Of a stretch of 41,506 bases of DNA, positions 6,063 through 41,506 are shown piece after piece. The position numbers and the translations under genes were made by a program. Below the pieces are notes generated by a model. That model saw nothing but the letters and a program-made list of their open reading frames with translations. It had not been told where the DNA came from and did not search any database. Location of the stretch: assembly GCA_964617145.1 (NCBI GenBank), contig CAZTVN010000003.1, positions 1-41,506 of the forward strand. The letters run 5' to 3'. Source of the stretch: an uncultured Candidatus Peribacteria bacterium. Its GTDB lineage: Bacteria; Patescibacteriota; Gracilibacteria; UBA1369; JACRIC01. Within the stretch, counting starts at the first letter, position 1, and each line of letters begins with the position of its first letter.

Positions 6063-6143
6063 AAAGAGGCTTAAGAAAAACTATCTTACTACTTAATAAT
6101 TGCAAATTTCGGCTAAGCAACGTAAGTTTTTCAGATCCTCCTT
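6063..6143 (+). repeat. Short family-1 repeat abutting the folC-like start codon
   Basis: aaagaggcttaaGAAAAACtatcttactacttaataattgcaaatttcggct...GTTTTTCAGatcctcctt, immediately followed by the ATG at 6144. Confidence 0.6.
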
Positions 6144-14320: not shown

Positions 14321-14485
14321 GGACACTCTGAAAAAAACCCTTTCGACTGCAATTGCAAGCGTTCGGCTAAAAAATGGCTCATGCCTTCTTGCCGTATCTT
14401 TCTCTGATACGCCTTCGTCGGCCTTCGCCATTTTCGCCAGAACGCTTGCAATTTCGTAACCGAAATGGCATTTTTCAGAGTGTCC
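14321..14485 (+). repeat. Long family-1 rod hairpin (165 nt) between convergent genes
   Basis: ggacactctgaaaaa (14321-14335) pairs with tttttcagagtgtcc (14471-14485), 15 bp perfect. aattgcaagcgttc (14351-14364) pairs with gaacgcttgcaatt (14440-14453), 14 bp perfect. The left arm aligns with 41462-41506 (ctgaaaaa..actgcaatt..ttcggct). Confidence 0.75.
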
Positions 14486-15632: not shown

Positions 15633-15679
15633 ATCTCAAAATTATACCTTATTTTAGACCAAAAATCAATTTAAGAATG

Positions 15680-15699
15680 GGCTGAAAAACTATTCAGCC
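15680..15699. terminator. Short hairpin downstream of mnmA carrying the CTGAAAAAC motif
   Basis: ggctgaa (15680-15686) pairs with ttcagcc (15693-15699). The sequence gggCTGAAAAACTATtcagcc resembles a family-1 arm start. Confidence 0.4.
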
Positions 15700-15794
15700 A
15701 CTACAATTTTCACATTTTGGCTTAAATTTGTTCAGGACAGATCAACGTATCTTTATCTGGGGAATAAGAGCTAGCAGCATTTTTTAGAGTTTGC

Positions 15795-21133: not shown

Positions 21134-21185
21134 ATTTTGTGCATTATTTTTCTCTGTAACTTCACAAATTTCGAGTATATTATTG

Positions 21186-21346
21186 AGTGGGCAAGGGAAT
21201 TTTTTCTCCTCAAAGGCTCCGCATTGACCGTACCAAAGGTCTCACTCCTTCTGATTTTACGATATAATCCGCAAAATCAGATAGTCATTCGACCTGTACG
21301 GTAACCCAATGCTTTGCCATTTGTCGAAAAAATTCCCTTGCCCACT
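21186..21346 (+). repeat. Rod hairpin element sharing a conserved core with 36523-36737 (candidate structured RNA or MITE relative)
   Basis: 21-bp perfect stem: agtgggcaagggaattttttc (21186-21206) pairs with gaaaaaattcccttgcccact (21326-21346). Core blocks ctccgcattgaccgt (21217-21231) and atcagatagtcattcg (21276-21291) are shared with the 36.5-kb copy. Confidence 0.75.
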
Positions 21347-21451
21347 TATCAAGTTTGTACTCAAAAAAAATGAAACCGTACGCCCCCTTCATATTATCGT
21401 TTTTTTGCATTACAATACAGAAGAAATTTGTAACTTCTTGCGACTAATTCA

Positions 21452-24386: not shown

Positions 24387-24546
24387 TTAGATAGCGGCAG
24401 ATTGCTTTTTCCTGAACGCTTTCGTCTACTATTAAATAAAAATTTTTTTTACTTATCCGAAAGCTCGATTCTCGCGAAGCATCAACCTTTTCTCATTCTC
24501 TTGCTTCGCTCGAAACGTCAGTCAAAAGCAATCTGCCGCTATCTAA
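24387..24546 (+). repeat. Long rod hairpin element (160 nt), divergent family-1 member
   Basis: 23-bp perfect stem: ttagatagcggcagattgctttt (24387-24409) pairs with aaaagcaatctgccgctatctaa (24524-24546). Inner pairs are gcgaagca (24474-24481)/tgcttcgc (24502-24509) and ctgaacgctttcg/cgaaacgtcag. The internal ctttcgtctactattaaat resembles other family members. Confidence 0.7.
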
Positions 24547-29976: not shown

Positions 29977-31884
29977 TTATTTTTTACTTTTTGTCAAGGC
30001 TTTGTAGTATGATGCTCTTTCTCTATAGCTTGATGCCTCTTTTGGATAGACGACGGCGAGCAATTCGTAGAGATTTGTCGCCGCCTCCCTGTTTGGTGTT
30101 TGTACGGTATAGTGAATATTGTTTTTGAGTTGAAATTCGTACTTTTCCAGAAGATCGAGCGTCATGCCTTTTATCTTGTCTATTTCATCTTCAGAGCCGA
30201 TTTTTCTCGCCATATCAATGAAATTCCAATAATACCAAAAGTGATTCATGGGATTTAAGTTTAACGCCTTCTTAAAACTCGAAAAAGCGTCCCTATATTT
30301 TCCCTGACTTCTTTGGATTTCCCCGAGTCTTTCCCAGCCTTCGGAATCGATAGGATTTAAGATTAAATGTTTTTCCAGCGCTATTTTTGCGAGATCGATA
30401 TTTCCTTCAGCCAAAAAAGTCTGAAAACGTTTCATAAAATGTTCTCGAGGGAAGAGCGTTTTTTCATAATATTCGAAATACATTTCTCCTTTTTGAAAAT
30501 CGTTCGCGCTTTCAGATTGATAGGCTTTTTTCTCAAATTGAGTGAGTTGCATCTCAAAAATGCCGTTTACGATCAAAATGCCAGCAATCAATAAGGCGAC
30601 GTAGGATCGTTTTTCCCCTTGAAGATGTTGAAAACTTATCATACTTCGCACAGAGGCGAGCAAAATAAAAAACAGAAGAATATTTACGATGAAATTCAAA
30701 TTGTAATCGATTTGATTATGGAGAATGGCTCCCAAAAGTGAGCTTGAGATAATCAGCGCTTCGTATTCATTAAAATTTTCAAGAAATCGGATTCTCTTTA
30801 TCATCGTTCTGGCCAATATGATGAAAAATCCTAACAAAAATATGGCTGCGATGAGTCCTTCTTCTGAAGCTATTTTCAGCAAGATATTGTGAGCGTGATC
30901 GGATGTTCCGAGAAATGTTGTCTGTACATGCGGATAGGCAAATCGGAAACTATAAGGACCGTAGCCGAAAAACGGCTTTTCAAGAGTGAGAGTGATCGCA
31001 CCTTTCCAAAATTCTATGCGTTCTCGTATGGATGTTATATTTTCTTGATGCTGAAAAGTAATTTTTTCTTCAAAAGTGGTTATATCGTGTGTTTGTCCTC
31101 TTATCAGGTTCGATCCTTGAATTATTAAAAATGTGAGCACGGTAATGAGTGCCACTTGTGTGAAAAATCTTTTTTTCCACCTGTAAGGGCGGATGGTGAA
31201 AAACAAAAAAAGACTTTGCAATATGAAAACCAACCATCCTCCTCTTGAATAGGTGAGATAGAGAGCGCTTATTATGAAGGCGGTAGCTAGTGGTGCGAGG
31301 GTTTTTAATTTTCCCTTCAGAAGAGCTAGTGACAAAGGCCAAACCATAATCAAAAACAGCGCTGCGCCATTTGGCCAAAGTTCCCCTGAGTTTTCTAAGT
31401 TTATAAATGTTGCGAAAAAGCGAGGAGAGGGATGAGTAAAATAAAAATAATATCCGATTCCTACGGCAATAATGGAAATGGACAGTATGCCAGGAAGCAA
31501 CCATGATCTGTAAAAAGAGGTATGAGCCAATGAAAGATAGATCGTAATAGATGAGGCGAATACCAGGATTTCAGAAAATCCGTAATTTTTTGTTTGTGAT
31601 AAAAAAAAGGCTGTTATAAGACTTAAGAGAAATCCTAAAAGGAAAATTTTTTCCTTTTTTGATTCTTCTCGTTTCATCCGAAATGCTACCAGCGCTAGAG
31701 GCAATGTACTAAACGCGAGTAAGAGTACGGGGAATAAGTCCTCGCCTTCATCATATTTTTTTGAGTGAAAAAGGAAAAGAAAGTATGCAAAAAGGGAAAT
31801 TAAAAGAATCGGTGGAATTTGTGTGAAATTTTCTCGGATAGTTAGGGCCTGTGCACACAAAGTTTTTACAGATGGAAGAGACAT
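29977..31884 (-). CDS. O-antigen ligase/polymerase (Wzy_C)-like membrane protein with C-terminal TPR repeats
   Basis: 635 aa, more than 10 TM helices. YSRGGW loop block and C-terminal TPR-like repeats (GWERLGEIQRSQGKYRDAFSSFKKALNLNP). The first 14 codons lie inside the 31843-32117 element. Confidence 0.75.
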   Translation of the reverse strand: MSLPSVKTLCAQALTIRENFTQIPPILLISLFAYFLFLFHSKKYDEGEDLFPVLLLAFSTLPLALVAFRMKREESKKEKIFLLGFLLSLITAFFLSQTKNYGFSEILVFASSITIYLSLAHTSFYRSWLLPGILSISIIAVGIGYYFYFTHPSPRFFATFINLENSGELWPNGAALFLIMVWPLSLALLKGKLKTLAPLATAFIISALYLTYSRGGWLVFILQSLFLFFTIRPYRWKKRFFTQVALITVLTFLIIQGSNLIRGQTHDITTFEEKITFQHQENITSIRERIEFWKGAITLTLEKPFFGYGPYSFRFAYPHVQTTFLGTSDHAHNILLKIASEEGLIAAIFLLGFFIILARTMIKRIRFLENFNEYEALIISSSLLGAILHNQIDYNLNFIVNILLFFILLASVRSMISFQHLQGEKRSYVALLIAGILIVNGIFEMQLTQFEKKAYQSESANDFQKGEMYFEYYEKTLFPREHFMKRFQTFLAEGNIDLAKIALEKHLILNPIDSEGWERLGEIQRSQGKYRDAFSSFKKALNLNPMNHFWYYWNFIDMARKIGSEDEIDKIKGMTLDLLEKYEFQLKNNIHYTVQTPNREAATNLYELLAVVYPKEASSYRERASYYKALTKSKK

Positions 31885-32117
31885 ATTTTGTTCAGTTCAA
31901 GAAACGACGACGAAGGTGTGCCCAAAGGCACATCGAGGAGGAGTAACGCAGAAATGGGCAAAATATGTCTCTTCCCTTCGGGTTGAACAGGAACCTGTCA
32001 GGTCTTCTTTGTTGCTCGTCGCTTGTGGAGCGCAATGGCGAAACAGCGCTCCTCGCGCCGCGAATCCGACAACGTTCCTGTTCAACCATCGCAAAAACTT
32101 TGTGTGCACAGGCCCTA
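31843..32117. repeat. 275-bp element bounded by 25-bp perfect inverted repeats (family-2 box) enclosing a GC-richer multi-hairpin core
   Basis: tagggcctgtgcacacaaagttttt (31843-31867) pairs with aaaaactttgtgtgcacaggcccta (32093-32117). Internal perfect stems: 31874-31890/31959-31975 (17 bp), 31981-31994/32074-32087 (14 bp), 32027-32033/32046-32052 (7 bp). Confidence 0.8.
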
Positions 32118-32320
32118 GTAAAAATTTTCGTTTCATTATCCCGATTATATCGGAATTTTTAGTCAAGGGGAAAATTATGTTCTTCGGATCGTATTTCTCG
32201 CATCTAGCATCAGAAGGGATTCGCTCAAAAGATTTTTCTGCATCTTTTGTCTTTCACTTCGAGAAGTCTCGTCGAAGCTCGACTTCTCTTTGTTCCAGAA
32301 CGCGAATCTCGCATCTTCAT

Positions 32321-32392
32321 TGCCGAGGGGCGGAATTGAACCACCGACACGAGGATTTTCAGTCCCCTGCTCTACCACTGAGCTACCTCGGC
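32321..32392 (-). tRNA. tRNA-Phe (anticodon GAA)
   Basis: The reverse complement reads GCCGAGGTAGCTCAGTGGTAGAGCAGGGGACTGAAAATCCTCGTGTCGGTGGTTCAATTCCGCCCCTCGGCA. It folds as a full cloverleaf with a CUGAAAA anticodon loop. CCA is not encoded. Confidence 0.92.
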
Positions 32393-33015: not shown

Positions 33016-34488
33016 TTACATTCTTATTGAAATACCATTCTTTCTTAAAAATTTCTTTACCTTGGCTATCGTGACCTCTTGAAAATGCAACATGCTCGCC
33101 AAAAGTACGCTGTCTGCTTTCCCCTTTTCAAATGCTTCCAGAAGATGCTGCAATGTTCCAGCTCCTCCTGAGGCGATCACTGGAATGTTTACCGATGTAC
33201 TTACTTTTTCTATTAATTTTAGATCATACCCTTGCTTTATACCATCTCTGTCCATAGAAGTTAAAAGGATCTCTCCTGCTCCTAATTTCTCCACTTTTTT
33301 TGCCCAATCTATCGCGTCAAGCTCGGTCTCCTCACTTCCACCTTTTATAAACACTTTATAATTTTTTCCAACTTTTTTCGCATCGATAGCCACCACTATG
33401 CACTGCGATCCAAAATTTTTGGCTCCTTCCTTAATGAGCTTTGGATTTAATATCGCAGCGGTATTTATCGTTATCTTATCAGCTCCACATTTCAGTATTC
33501 GTCTCATTTCTTCTACGCTTTTTATACCTCCTCCCACCGTAAAAGGAATCGATACTTTCTTTGCTACTTTTTCGACCATACGATAGATGGTGTCACGATT
33601 TTCCTTACTCGCGGTTATGTCGAGAAAAACAAGTTCGTCTGCACCCTTTTTTGAATATTTTTCACCCAACTTGCCAGGATCACCGGCGTCTTTTAAGTTG
33701 AGGAAACGCTTCCCTTTCACTACTCTGCCATCTTTTACGTCGAGACAAGGTATAATTCGTTTTGTTAGGGCGCTATTTTTGAGCGCTTCGCACAGGAGAA
33801 TTTTCCCTTCATAAAGAGCTTTTCCAATAATTGCTCCTTCAATGTTTAATTTTTTTAATATTTGCAAGCTTCTCAAGTTCGATATTCCTCCTGATGCGAT
33901 CACTTTTAATCCGAGATTTTTTAACTGCGAAATCATCTCAAAGTTTGGTGATGTTAATGTCCCATCTCTTGAGATGTCTGTGGCGATAATTTCACTGATT
34001 CCTATTTTTTTCAGATTTTTAGCGAATTTTCTATATTCGAGAGCGGTATTTTTTTGCCAACCATTCGTTACCACATTGCCATTTTCGATATCGATGGCGA
34101 CTATAATCGATTTTGCTCCGTAAAAATTTACTAAGTTTTGTAGAAATTTCTGATCAGACGCCGCGACAGTCCCTATCACGATTCGCTCAATGCCGGAATC
34201 GAGATAGAAACGCGCATCTTTCTCCTGCCGTATTCCTCCACCAACTTGCAGAGGAATTTTCACTTTTTTCCTCATTTTCGCTATCAAATTTTGATTTACA
34301 GGATATCCAGCCTTAGCACCATCAAGATCAATAACATGCAACATCGGAGCTCCTTGCTTTGCAAATTTTTCAGCCACAAAAATCGGATTTTCGTTGTATA
34401 CTTTTTTTTCTTCAAAATCACCTCGTAACAGGCGCACGCATTTGCCGCCCATGATGTCAATTGCAGGAATTATCAACATAAAGTACAA
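33016..34488 (-). CDS. hisAF: HisA-HisF fusion protein (ProFAR isomerase fused to the imidazole glycerol phosphate synthase cyclase subunit)
   Basis: 490 aa. The N-terminal half has [15 protein letters not shown] and [11 protein letters not shown] (HisA). The C-terminal half has [16 protein letters not shown] and [10 protein letters not shown] (HisF). The true start is probably the ATG at 34479 (MLIIPAIDI). Confidence 0.85.
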
Positions 34489-35114
34489 AAATTACGTAAT
34501 ATTTTCATACCTTGCTCGCCTGATTTTTCGGGATGAAATTGTGTGCCGAAAAAATTTTTATACTGAAGCACTACGGGGAATCTGATCTCATAATCTGCTT
34601 CGGCAATAATATTTTGCTGTAGCGCATCGAAATAATATGAATGCACAAAATAAAAATATGCATCGTCTTTGATGCCTTTTGTGAGCTTGGAGGTTTTTTT
34701 TAATGATACTCGATTCCAGCCCATGTGCGGAATTTTTAATCCTTTTTGCTGCGGCAATTTTCTCACTCGACCTTTCATAATTTTGAGACATTCCACATTA
34801 CCTTCATAAGAAAATTCGGCCAAAATCTGCATTCCAAGACAAATACCAAGAAACGGGACATTGAGTTTTTGAATGAAATTTTTGATTTTTTGTAGGTGTT
34901 CCATCGCTTGAGAAGCCGCACCAACACCTGGGAGGATATATCCGTCGTATTTGGGAAGAGTCTGAAAAACGTGCTTACTCCTGCAATTTTCTGACAAAAC
35001 CATATTTTCCCGAGGCTCTTTATCAAACTTTTCGAATGACACTCCAATTTTGGAAAGAGCATTTTCAATACTTTTTATATTTCCCGCACCGTAGTCAATT
35101 ATAGCGATTTTCAT
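34473..35114 (-). CDS. hisH: Imidazole glycerol phosphate synthase glutaminase subunit
   Basis: 213 aa. [10 protein letters not shown], nucleophile block FLGICLGMQ, and FVHSYY. Confidence 0.85.
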
Positions 35115-36167: not shown

Positions 36168-36467
36168 TTATTTTCCTCGTCGTTTCATGACGAACTTATA
36201 TCCACCCATTCCGTGATGGAACCAATGGGCGACCCTTGTAACGGTTGCTGTGCTCGCACCAGTTTTTTTGCTGATTTCTCGATACGTTTCATTGTTAGCA
36301 ACGCGTTTTGCTACCTGAAATCTTTCTATCATGGCTTTGAGTTCGGACAGCGTACATAAATCTCTTAAAAAATTACGGCATTCTTTTTCGGTTTTGAGAT
36401 TTAATAGAGCTTTTAAGAGCTCTTTCGCTTCTTTTTGATTTAAAAAATTTTCATTCATTGTTTTCAT
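36168..36467 (-). CDS. TrpR-like DNA-binding protein, YerC/YecD family
   Basis: 99 aa. The block ETYREISKKTGASTATVTRV..GMGGYKF matches my recollection of the YerC/YecD HTH. Confidence 0.75.
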   Translation of the reverse strand: MKTMNENFLNQKEAKELLKALLNLKTEKECRNFLRDLCTLSELKAMIERFQVAKRVANNETYREISKKTGASTATVTRVAHWFHHGMGGYKFVMKRRGK

Positions 36468-36522
36468 GTATTAAAACGCTATCATGTTATCATGTAATAA
36501 TTTCATGTCAAGTTAAAAATTG

Positions 36523-36737
36523 GTAACTGCTCACAATGGTAAAAAGTGGGCGGGGCGTTTCCCTTTCGTCCTGCCTCCGCATTGACCGTCCATCCGCTCA
36601 TTTCTTCTGATAACGCGATTGGCAGACGCGTTATCAGATAGTCACTCGCGGGGACGGTTCCCAATTGCTCGGCAATGTCCTTAAGGGAAACGCCCCGCCC
36701 ACTTTTTTACCCCCGTTGATTCCTTGTGAGCAGTTAC
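36523..36737 (+). mobile_element. MITE-like 215-bp hairpin element with 14-bp TIRs and an 8-bp target-site-duplication-like direct repeat
   Basis: TIRs: gtaactgctcacaa (36523-36536) and ttgtgagcagttac (36724-36737). The direct repeat aaaaattg flanks it on both sides (36515-36522 and 36738-36745). Inner 23-bp perfect stem: 36541-36563 pairs with 36685-36707. The core is shared with 21186-21346. Confidence 0.7.
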
Positions 36738-36753
36738 AAAAATTGCATAAAAA

Positions 36754-37527
36754 TCATTCGACAGTTATTTTTTTAAAAAACTCTATCAATCCATATAAAA
36801 GTGGAATGTGGAGCAAGTATATGACAAGAGCGTATTTTGAGAAAAACTGAAATATTTTCGGAGTAATGCGTGATATTTTCTCTGAATTTTTCCATCTTCT
36901 TTTTCCTCCAGGATATAAAAAGTGTCCAAGCAATATTCCCAGTGTTGGAAGAGTTATCCAAGGGAAAATAGGGAAATAATCAATGGTTTGAAAATTTTGC
37001 ACTTTAAATCCAAAAATGAGTAAAAGAGGGAACGATGTTTCTACTTCCTGAAATATTTTTCCGAGTCCGAAACCGATCAAGGCTATTATTTTGAGTGTTT
37101 TCTTTTTCTCTACGAAGAAACTTAAAAAATAACTTGATACGGCTATAAAATGCAGGACTCCAAATCGAACATAGAGATCTCCTATAAATATTCGCGTTGC
37201 TAAAGTCACGAAAATAGCACTGAGCAATATGATTTTTGATCGGTTCCATTGTCTAAAATAAAAAGCGTTTTTCGATATGCCCTTTGCGCGAATTTTATTA
37301 TATGAAATTGCCATGCATACTCCCACCAAAATCAGAAAAGAAAACTGTACAAATCTTGCGAGTAACAGAAAGCCACCTTCGTACATTTCGTAATTTCGTA
37401 TTTCAAGAAAATCCAGCAGAAAGAAAAAATGAAAAATAATCATGCCTATTACGGCCAATGTTCTCAATATGTCGATTTCTTCAAAGCGCTCGTCTGTTTG
37501 GTTTATTTTCTTGTGATTTTTTTTCAC
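36754..37527 (-). CDS. DUF1624 / heparan-alpha-glucosaminide N-acetyltransferase-like membrane acyltransferase
   Basis: 257 aa, multi-pass membrane protein. The N-terminal EIDILRTLAVIGMIIFHF resembles the DUF1624 signature. Confidence 0.55.
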   Translation of the reverse strand: MKKNHKKINQTDERFEEIDILRTLAVIGMIIFHFFFLLDFLEIRNYEMYEGGFLLLARFVQFSFLILVGVCMAISYNKIRAKGISKNAFYFRQWNRSKIILLSAIFVTLATRIFIGDLYVRFGVLHFIAVSSYFLSFFVEKKKTLKIIALIGFGLGKIFQEVETSFPLLLIFGFKVQNFQTIDYFPIFPWITLPTLGILLGHFLYPGGKRRWKNSEKISRITPKIFQFFSKYALVIYLLHIPLLYGLIEFFKKITVE

Positions 37528-40657: not shown

Positions 40658-41291
40658 AATTACTTTTTCTGTCGTTACGATAAATGGCCTTATCGACTCT
40701 ATTAATCCTTGCGCTATTGGAGTTTTGATAGCAACGGTTGCGATCCTTTTTGCACTAGGAAATTATCGGCAACAGATTCTCCGATTTGGGTTCTTTTATA
40801 TTCTCTCTACTTATGTTACTTACCTTTTGATAGGACTTGGCATTTTAAAGGCAATACATCTTTTTGGCGTCCATAATTTCTTTGGCTGGCTTTCTGCTGT
40901 CGTCCTTATTCTTATGGGTTTGTGGCAACTTTTTCGTTCTGCCTGCATCGTACCAAAGCATATGCCGAAAGAGGCTACTATTCTGTCCGGCGTTTTTTTG
41001 GGATTTCTTGTAGGACTCTGTGAATTTCCTTGCTCTGGAGGTATCTATCTTGCGACTGTTGGCTTTATTGGCCTTCGCGAAACCTTTTTCTCAGGGCTTC
41101 TTTTGCTCATGTGGTACAACTTCATGTTCGTCTTGCCGATCCTTGCTCTTTTTCTTATTGCCTACAATCTTTCCGCAGCTAAAATGATCTCCGAATTAGT
41201 CGGAAAATTTGGTGCTCGTGCTCGATACTTTAGCGCTGCTGCTATGATCATCATAGGGATTCTTCTCTTGAGTTGGCTTATTTTTCGTTAG
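40647..41291 (+). CDS. CcdA/DsbD-family transmembrane thiol-disulfide electron transporter
   Basis: 214 aa, about 6 TM helices. Membrane-embedded Cys motifs SINPCAIG and EFPCSGG. Overlaps the upstream gene by 11 nt. Confidence 0.65.
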   Translation: MSNEITFSVVTINGLIDSINPCAIGVLIATVAILFALGNYRQQILRFGFFYILSTYVTYLLIGLGILKAIHLFGVHNFFGWLSAVVLILMGLWQLFRSACIVPKHMPKEATILSGVFLGFLVGLCEFPCSGGIYLATVGFIGLRETFFSGLLLLMWYNFMFVLPILALFLIAYNLSAAKMISELVGKFGARARYFSAAAMIIIGILLLSWLIFR

Positions 41292-41337
41292 AATTTCAGT
41301 AGAAAGTTGGTTTTCCAAAGGATCTTAGACTATTGTT

Positions 41338-41371
41338 AAGAGGCCTCGCGAATAAATTCGCGAGGCCTCTT
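41338..41371 (+). terminator. Perfect 15-bp stem hairpin downstream of the CcdA-like gene
   Basis: aagaggcctcgcgaa, loop taaa, ttcgcgaggcctctt. There is no clean T-tract afterwards. Confidence 0.55.
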
Positions 41372-41440
41372 ATACTAAATCCTTACTGCCGGAGACTTGC
41401 TCTTACTTATATCTCCACCTGCTCAATACGAATTTTGAGT

Positions 41441-41506
41441 TGAGGAGGGTCTAAGGAGGTGCTGAAAAACATACCATCTACTGCAATTTTACCATTTCGG
41501 CTGCAA
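41441..41506. repeat. Left half of a family-1 hairpin repeat (AAGGAGGTG-CTGAAAAAC end), truncated by the window end
   Basis: gaggagggtctAAGGAGGTGCTGAAAAACataccatctactgcaattttaccatttcggctgcaa. It aligns with 14328-14372 and with the reverse complements of 952-1025 and 1-52. Confidence 0.7.

Follow-up and report, generated by a model that had tools for sequence, protein, structure and literature searches.

A 215-bp hairpin-shaped element with IS66-type ends, probably a MITE, in a candidate-phyla-like bacterial genome

A hairpin-shaped intergenic element of 215 bp, located at positions 36523–36737 of the window (the whole 41.5-kb stretch of DNA that was analyzed), is very probably a MITE carrying ends of the ISBst12 group in the IS66 family. 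Its two ends are perfect inverted repeats that match the ends of this group, an exact 8-bp repeat abuts them on both sides, and a diverged second copy of its inner part is found in the same window, in which no transposase is encoded.

Structure of the element

The terminal inverted repeats are 14 bp long and perfect (14/14). The left repeat, GTAACTGCTCACAA (36523–36536, plus strand), is the exact reverse complement of the right repeat (36724–36737, minus strand), which reads TTGTGAGCAGTTAC on the plus strand, and both repeats are directly abutted by the candidate target-site duplication AAAAATTG, at 36515–36522 on the left and 36738–36745 on the right. An earlier note on this DNA had described the same end repeats and the same flanking direct repeat, and both can be read directly from the sequence. 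That note had also reported a perfect inner stem of 23 bp; its actual length is 25 bp, the left arm at 36541–36565 being 100% complementary to the right arm at 36683–36707, and the stem grows to about 29 bp when one bulged A is allowed. On the left side just 4 nt separate the end repeat from the stem. The right side has a spacer of its own (36708–36723) that is mostly unpaired in the predicted folds, in which its initial TACC lengthens the stem and CCCGTTGATTCC stays unpaired. The hairpin interior (36566–36682, plus strand), which aligns with 21207–21325 of the second copy, contains the stems GCATTG/CAATTGC and ACCGTCC/GGACGGT together with an apical 12-bp hairpin (36606–36617/36627–36638).

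The entire 215 nt is predicted to fold as a single long hairpin, with energies of −118 kcal/mol for the plus strand and −126 kcal/mol for the minus strand as RNA, and of −71 kcal/mol as DNA. Compared with shuffled sequences, the fold has a z value of −12 to −14, as RNA of either strand or as DNA. Nearly palindromic, the element folds as well on one strand as on the other and has no coding capacity: no ORF of substance lies inside it, and the longest ORF that overlaps it (61 aa) extends into the flank. Its size of under approximately 500 bp, its end repeats, and the duplication abutting them are structural features by which a MITE is recognized.

We examined how readily the flanking repeat could arise by chance. 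AAAAATTG occurs 10 times on the plus strand of the window and five times as its reverse complement. Identical 8-mers at the fixed spacing are found in the window at a rate of 5e-5, or of 1.5e-4 if the left 8-mer is AT-rich, and the flanking repeat is therefore not a by-product of AT-richness. A local AT-rich duplication, which the earlier note had offered as a rival cause, accordingly loses ground, with a chance of approximately 1e-4 for the match at fixed spacing.

Probable assignment to the ISBst12 group (IS66 family)

The ends were compared with a reference set that started from the IS66-like transposase of the Geobacillus plasmid pHTA426. A tblastn search with this protein returned 190 plasmid records with relatives, 12 diverse records were fetched in addition to pHTA426, and the ends were located in the resulting 13 single-ORF IS66-like elements. 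Clear ends were obtained for nine of the 13, from Deinococcus, Planococcus, Bacillus, Geobacillus, Acaryochloris, Trichormus, Chlorohelix, and Niveispirillum, and the end consensus of these nine plasmid-borne ISBst12-group elements is GTAACTACTCAGCC. Exact 8-bp duplications flank eight of the nine (TAAAAATC, TTGAAAAG, CTTCATTC, GAATCCAG, GTTCTACC, AAAAATTT, AATTATTT, and AACTCGTC), and the Pfam domain DDE_Tnp_IS66 was present in all four reference transposases scanned. ISDge4 of Deinococcus geothermalis, a published member of the IS66 family and its ISBst12 group, has a single ORF for a 449-aa transposase and the ends GTGACTACTCAGCA and GTAACTGCTCAGCA, and its transposition gave an 8-bp duplication (PMC12898284).

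The left repeat GTAACTGCTCACAA agrees with the IS66-type end GTAACTGCTCAGCA of Deinococcus wulumuqiensis at 12 of 14 bases, the initial 11 being identical, and with the ISDge4 end likewise at 12 of 14. When a position matrix built from the 18 ends of the nine ISBst12-group references was scored on all 82,986 14-mers of the window, the two ends of the element tied at ranks 2–3. The AT-rich target AAAAATTG also resembles the reference targets AAAAATTT and TAAAAATC, within a small sample. End sequence, duplication length, and target type are three independent features, and their agreement places the element with the same insertion-sequence group. Of the features that define this group, the element has the 5'-GTAA start, the fit to the consensus, and the 8-bp duplication, and it lacks the internal DDE_Tnp_IS66 transposase required for an autonomous member. 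These results support the earlier reading of the element as a non-autonomous transposon and add a family to it, as the ends and the duplication length are those of single-ORF IS66-family (ISBst12-group) elements.

The top match of the window to the ISBst12-group end matrix is GTTACTATTCAGGA at 33232–33245 (plus strand), which is presumably a chance match because no partner end is near it and it lies inside a hisA/hisF fusion gene. Two other likenesses, one of half-sites in the ends to the lac operator and one to the ends of IS1, were dropped as unsupported.

Genomic setting and related contigs

The window has a G + C content of approximately 38% and is an ordinary bacterial chromosome segment, with a histidine-biosynthesis cluster, a tRNA gene, and genes for RelA/SpoT, an NAD-dependent ligase, DnaX, a sortase, and SLH-domain proteins. 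The element lies between two minus-strand housekeeping genes, namely the stop codon of a DUF1624/HGSNAT-like gene (36754–37527) and a TrpR/YerC-like gene (36168–36458), the regulator that heads the histidine-biosynthesis gene cluster. Candidatus Peregrinibacteria and other Patescibacteria are the source of the best named homologues of these two neighbor proteins, with identities of 36–46% for the DUF1624/HGSNAT-like protein and approximately 70% for the TrpR/YerC-like protein. The host is probably a candidate-phyla bacterium. A consensus scan located a promoter-like site of the TrpR/YerC-like gene at 36484–36511 (minus strand, 10/12), with the −35 element TTGACA (36511–36506) and the TG-extended −10 element TAACAT, at a distance of 4 nt from the left AAAAATTG. 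This site is a part of the host sequence and not of the element, and an insertion 4 nt upstream of it could affect transcription there. With the element and one copy of the duplication taken out, the spacer would shrink to approximately 60 bp, and the reconstructed empty site is AGTTAAAAATTGCATAAAAATC.

We infer the transposase mechanism from the family match, as the footprint alone is observed. An IS66-family DDE transposase, encoded elsewhere and supplied in trans, would bind the GTAACTGCTCA... ends of the element. Through an 8-bp staggered cut at the AT-rich site AAAAATTG, situated between the DUF1624/HGSNAT-like stop codon and the TrpR/YerC-like promoter, the element would be joined in, and gap repair of the staggered cut would then duplicate the target.

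Empty sites in related genomes had been proposed in the earlier note as a check on such an insertion, and none was found. The closest approach is a relative, L026 (ENA ERZ27247831), whose TrpR-like protein falls into the same 90%-identity cluster and which retains the TrpR–HisG arrangement and the promoter. Homology between L026 and the window reaches TTTTTAACTTGACA (window 36506–36519) and ends approximately 3 nt short of the left end of the element; upstream of this point, L026 has another gene and other GC-rich hairpins, and the element is absent. The break in homology is consistent with an insertion at that point. Because the upstream gene differs, however, the absence of the element from L026 is neither a clean insertion polymorphism nor a colinear empty site. 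Orthologous loci were also sought through the HGSNAT-like neighbor, and its closest homologues, 40–46% identical, were not syntenic. The spacer upstream of the promoter in L026 (1055–1240) carries its different GC-rich hairpins at z = −6.7 versus shuffles, including TTGGCGGTG...CACCGCCAA and a 17-bp stem at 1057–1108, so that this lineage seems to be characterized by intergenic spacers rich in hairpins.

Several Logan assemblies, all from one series of samples, contain contigs identical to the window. Two samples have contigs that end within the element at 36577, a further contig end within it falls at 36711, and another contig ends at 32089 (contigs L024, L025, L027, and L043). The ends fall on identical bases across independent samples and lie within two palindromes that have 25-bp perfect arms; palindromes with arms of 21–23 bp, including the hairpins starting at 21186 and 24387, are traversed by Logan contigs. 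The breaks could reflect extra identical copies elsewhere or a hairpin-related loss of coverage. We count them neither for nor against extra copies, given that a contig also ends in the unrelated 25-bp palindrome at 31843–32117.

A second, diverged copy

Alignment and a covariance model (182 bits) identified a second, diverged copy of the inner hairpin at 21186–21346 (plus strand), 15 kb from the element and in an unrelated intergenic region, between divergent genes for a type I dehydroquinase and an ECF sigma factor. The two copies share 81% column identity over 163 columns, and in this sense the "conserved core" of the earlier note is real. We do not regard "conserved blocks" such as CTCCGCATTGACCGT and ATCAGATAGTCA as functional evidence, since the longest identical run, 16 columns, is what 81% identity leads one to expect.

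The outer stems are perfect in both copies, over 25 bp and 21 bp, respectively, despite differences at 9 of the 21 aligned positions. When the 45 predicted pairs were examined in each copy, all 90 cells were paired, and 13 of the 45 pairs had changed on both sides with none broken; four of the changed pairs lie in the interior (36566–36682), where both copies retain every predicted pair. Only one of the 90 cells is a G-U pair. This low count, together with the equal folding of both strands, points to complementarity at the DNA level rather than to a strand-specific RNA. Perfect Watson-Crick stems that differ between copies may have arisen through selection on the hairpin, through template-switch repair of quasi-palindromes, or from separate master copies.

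Next to the second copy we found a possible remnant of a left end, GTAACTTCACAA at 21156–21167 (plus strand), which equals the left end of the element minus 2 nt. It is the top local alignment of the two left flanks, with equal scores in five of 500 shuffles (p ~0.01), and the ungapped ISBst12-group matrix ranks the site 75th of 82,986, as a weak left end. A search for the right end and for a flanking duplication of this copy gave nothing above chance. The copy at 21186–21346 would most simply be a same-family relic of greater age whose right end has been lost. The earlier note had asked for a count of copies and their duplications, and had held that a lack of direct repeats around other copies would speak against transposition. 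Two copies are now known: that at 36523 has its 8-bp duplication, and the sole other, which is degenerate, has none. In addition, TGTAACTTC occurs twice in direct orientation around the second hairpin copy, at 21156–21164 and 21429–21437, and its right-hand occurrence is 14 nt upstream of the start codon of the ECF sigma-factor gene.

Search for a transposase, a partner element, and further copies

Using 13 IS66-type transposases as tblastn queries, we detected no IS66 transposase or fragment of one in the window or in the contigs of relatives (every E > 0.2), and Pfam scans of the larger ORFs of the window found no transposase, in agreement with the earlier note. As the window holds no transposase, the element is non-autonomous; and as the element itself holds none either, it is not an IS66 insertion sequence but only a candidate non-autonomous derivative or passenger. 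No partner transposase with cognate ends was found in the sequences searched.

Exact-pattern scans of genome, metagenome, and viral collections yielded no copy beyond the two; for viral contigs, three patterns were used and none matched. Similarly, a blastn search of plasmids and phages with the element as query gave no match, and the covariance model of the two copies (R1) had no further match in the window, in L026, or in approximately 60 kb of contigs from relatives. The core pattern GCATTGACCGT-N30-60-CAGATAGTCA gave nine genome-contig and five metagenome-contig matches, which we rejected as chance: they come from unrelated GC-rich genomes, and the other features of the element are absent. 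Six-frame translations of both copies, compared with a protein collection in search of spurious ORF calls, had no match at E ≤ 10. Even at E = 10, no Rfam 15 family matched the element, and across the window only a tRNA scored above threshold.

Other repeats and hairpins in the window

Three further long intergenic hairpins are present in the window, at 14321–14485, 24387–24546, and 31843–32117, with perfect outer arms of 15–25 bp and 100–225 nt between them. They show no sequence kinship with one another or with the element, have no IS66-like ends, and have no Rfam match, and pairwise alignments of the five long hairpins related only the copies at 21186 and 36523. Apart from these five, the window contains no perfect inverted repeat of at least 14 nt with a spacer of up to 320 nt. 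The element had been taken in the earlier note as direct evidence that at least part of the hairpin-repeat population is or was mobile, a view that does not extend to the three unrelated hairpins; the element is now set apart from them.

The arm TAGGGCCTGTGCACACAAA of the palindrome at 31843–32117 (31843–31867 and 32093–32117) has a solo copy at 865–884, directly after the stop codon of ORF 134–868, so that the arm is itself a short dispersed repeat. This palindrome adjoins a tRNA gene (32321–32392, minus strand), and an 8-bp direct repeat, AAATTTTC, is placed 9 and 4 nt outside its arms (31826–31833 and 32122–32129); in view of the number of boundaries searched, that repeat is compatible with chance. 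A dispersed repeat family of approximately 55 nt, with a consensus like TTGCAGCCGAAAT...TAGTAG...GTTTTTCAG.CC.TCC, is represented at 1–51, 957–1025, 6075–6096, 15671–15739, and 41452–41506, and weakly at 34948–34989, and several of its copies lie immediately upstream of co-oriented genes. The contig begins and ends within inverted copies of this repeat, which is probably why the assembly stopped there. Near the contig end, the plus strand of 41248–41375 weakly matches the histidine operon leader of Rfam (36.5 bits, below the gathering score of 49 bits; E = 0.022), beside a short GC-rich hairpin at 41337–41372.

Alternative explanations

Several observations speak against a MITE. The stems of both copies are perfect although they differ from each other, which is not what neutral decay of dead copies predicts; moreover, only two copies are known, the second has neither a right end nor a duplication, and neither a partner nor an empty site was found. 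In one alternative, the inner hairpin of approximately 160 nt (AGTGGGC...GCCCACT; 36545–36703 and 21186–21346) would be a separate selected RNA or ssDNA module that became a passenger of a MITE only at 36523, an explanation that overlaps in part with the MITE reading itself. It draws on the fully paired 90 cells with their 13 doubly changed pairs, on the incomplete second copy, and on the perfection of stems that differ at 9 of 21 positions. It nevertheless leans on two sequences whose longest identical run is no longer than their 81% identity predicts; the single G-U cell and the equal folding of both strands do not suggest a strand-specific RNA; the core has no Rfam match and does not recur in the contigs of relatives; and a left-end-like 12-mer lies beside the second copy (p ~0.01). 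Furthermore, template-switch repair of quasi-palindromes, a known process in bacteria, can perfect hairpin arms without selection. We therefore hold a separate module to be rather doubtful. That the inner hairpin is a selected structured module spread by an IS66/ISBst12-type MITE, serving as a mobile terminator or regulatory hairpin or as ssDNA for IS66-type transposition, strikes us as unlikely. A present main role as a transcription signal of the host, compatible with an origin as a MITE, is a possibility we take seriously while doubting it. The element would then terminate read-through from upstream and insulate the TrpR-like promoter. Its position is 4 nt upstream of the promoter-like site, the genes on its two sides have the same orientation, and T-runs directly follow the 25-bp stem (GCCCACTTTTTT on the plus strand and GCCCACTTTTT on the minus strand), so a GC-rich stem with T-runs on both strands could terminate read-through toward that promoter. 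Against this, no T-run follows the stem of the second copy, and a terminator scan was negative, because the loop far exceeds the 3–8 nt limit.

Other explanations dispense with a DDE transposase. If the palindrome had grown locally, for example through template switching or an inverted duplication, its end repeats would simply be where the hairpin is outermost, and AAAAATTG would owe its repetition to chance or to local AT-richness; the four other long hairpins of the window, which have no transposon features, the AT-rich flanks, and the frequency of AAAAATTG would suit such an origin. An inverted duplication of the flank, however, predicts CAATTTTT at the right, where a direct repeat is seen instead, and a joint end match at ranks 2–3 of 82,986 with an exact 8-bp duplication is very unlikely to be a coincidence. 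An immobile origin was thus already disfavored, and we consider it very improbable. The near-perfect hairpin on both strands and its compensated stems also recall the architecture of REPINs, and hence mobility as ssDNA through a Y1/HUH enzyme, with the hairpin as the recognition signal of a REPIN or of an IS200/IS605-type palindrome-associated element. To our knowledge, elements of the IS200/IS605 and RAYT systems have neither target-site duplications nor DDE-type terminal inverted repeats. Both features are present here, Pfam scans found no genes for TnpA-Y1, RAYT, or TnpB in the window, and the 8-bp duplication excludes elements of the REPIN and IS200/IS605 types; we give Y1/HUH mobility hardly any credence. 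A MITE with ISBst12-group ends is the best explanation of the element at 36523–36737.

Significance

A hairpin repeat that looked anonymous now has a family, the ISBst12 group of IS66, and this assignment predicts a specific transposase elsewhere in the genome. It also indicates transposition, recent or past, in what appears to be a reduced genome of a candidate-phyla bacterium. Our literature search found no relevant paper on MITEs in candidate-phyla bacteria. If the inner hairpin were indeed a selected module, the element would be a MITE spreading a structured hairpin in a small Patescibacteria-like genome, in a group for which MITEs have hardly been described. Otherwise, the element is mobile DNA of an ordinary kind, and only its host, which looks like a small-genome candidate-phyla bacterium, makes it notable.

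Comparison with known systems

Palindromic MITEs of 100–250 bp with end repeats and a short target duplication are known in other bacteria, namely Correia elements in Neisseria, ERIC/IRU in enterobacteria, and RUP in Streptococcus. Like the 215-bp element, they have hairpin potential over their whole length, are intergenic, and may affect transcription of neighboring genes. They differ from it in their ends and in the length of their duplication (TA in Correia and ERIC), they are attributed to other presumed transposase families, and they reach tens to hundreds of copies per genome, compared with two here. REPINs, which are mobilized by RAYT, share with the element a long hairpin with inverted arms whose pairing is kept by compensated changes. 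Unlike the element, which has IS66-type ends and its 8-bp duplication, REPINs lack DDE-type ends as well as a target-site duplication, and they depend on a Y1 transposase.

The closest likeness is to the ISBst12-group insertion sequences. With the copy on pDrdI of D. wulumuqiensis and with ISDge4, the element shares GTAACTGCTCA over the initial 11 bases and 12 of 14 bases overall, and with the references of the group it shares an exact 8-bp duplication and AT-rich targets such as TAAAAATC and AAAAATTT. The references are 1.45–1.65 kb long and encode a DDE_Tnp_IS66 transposase of 450–485 aa, whereas the element has 215 bp and no gene, and its interior shows no relation to the subterminal sequences of the references. 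The host differs as well, as it appears to be a candidate-phyla bacterium and not Deinococcus or Bacillus.
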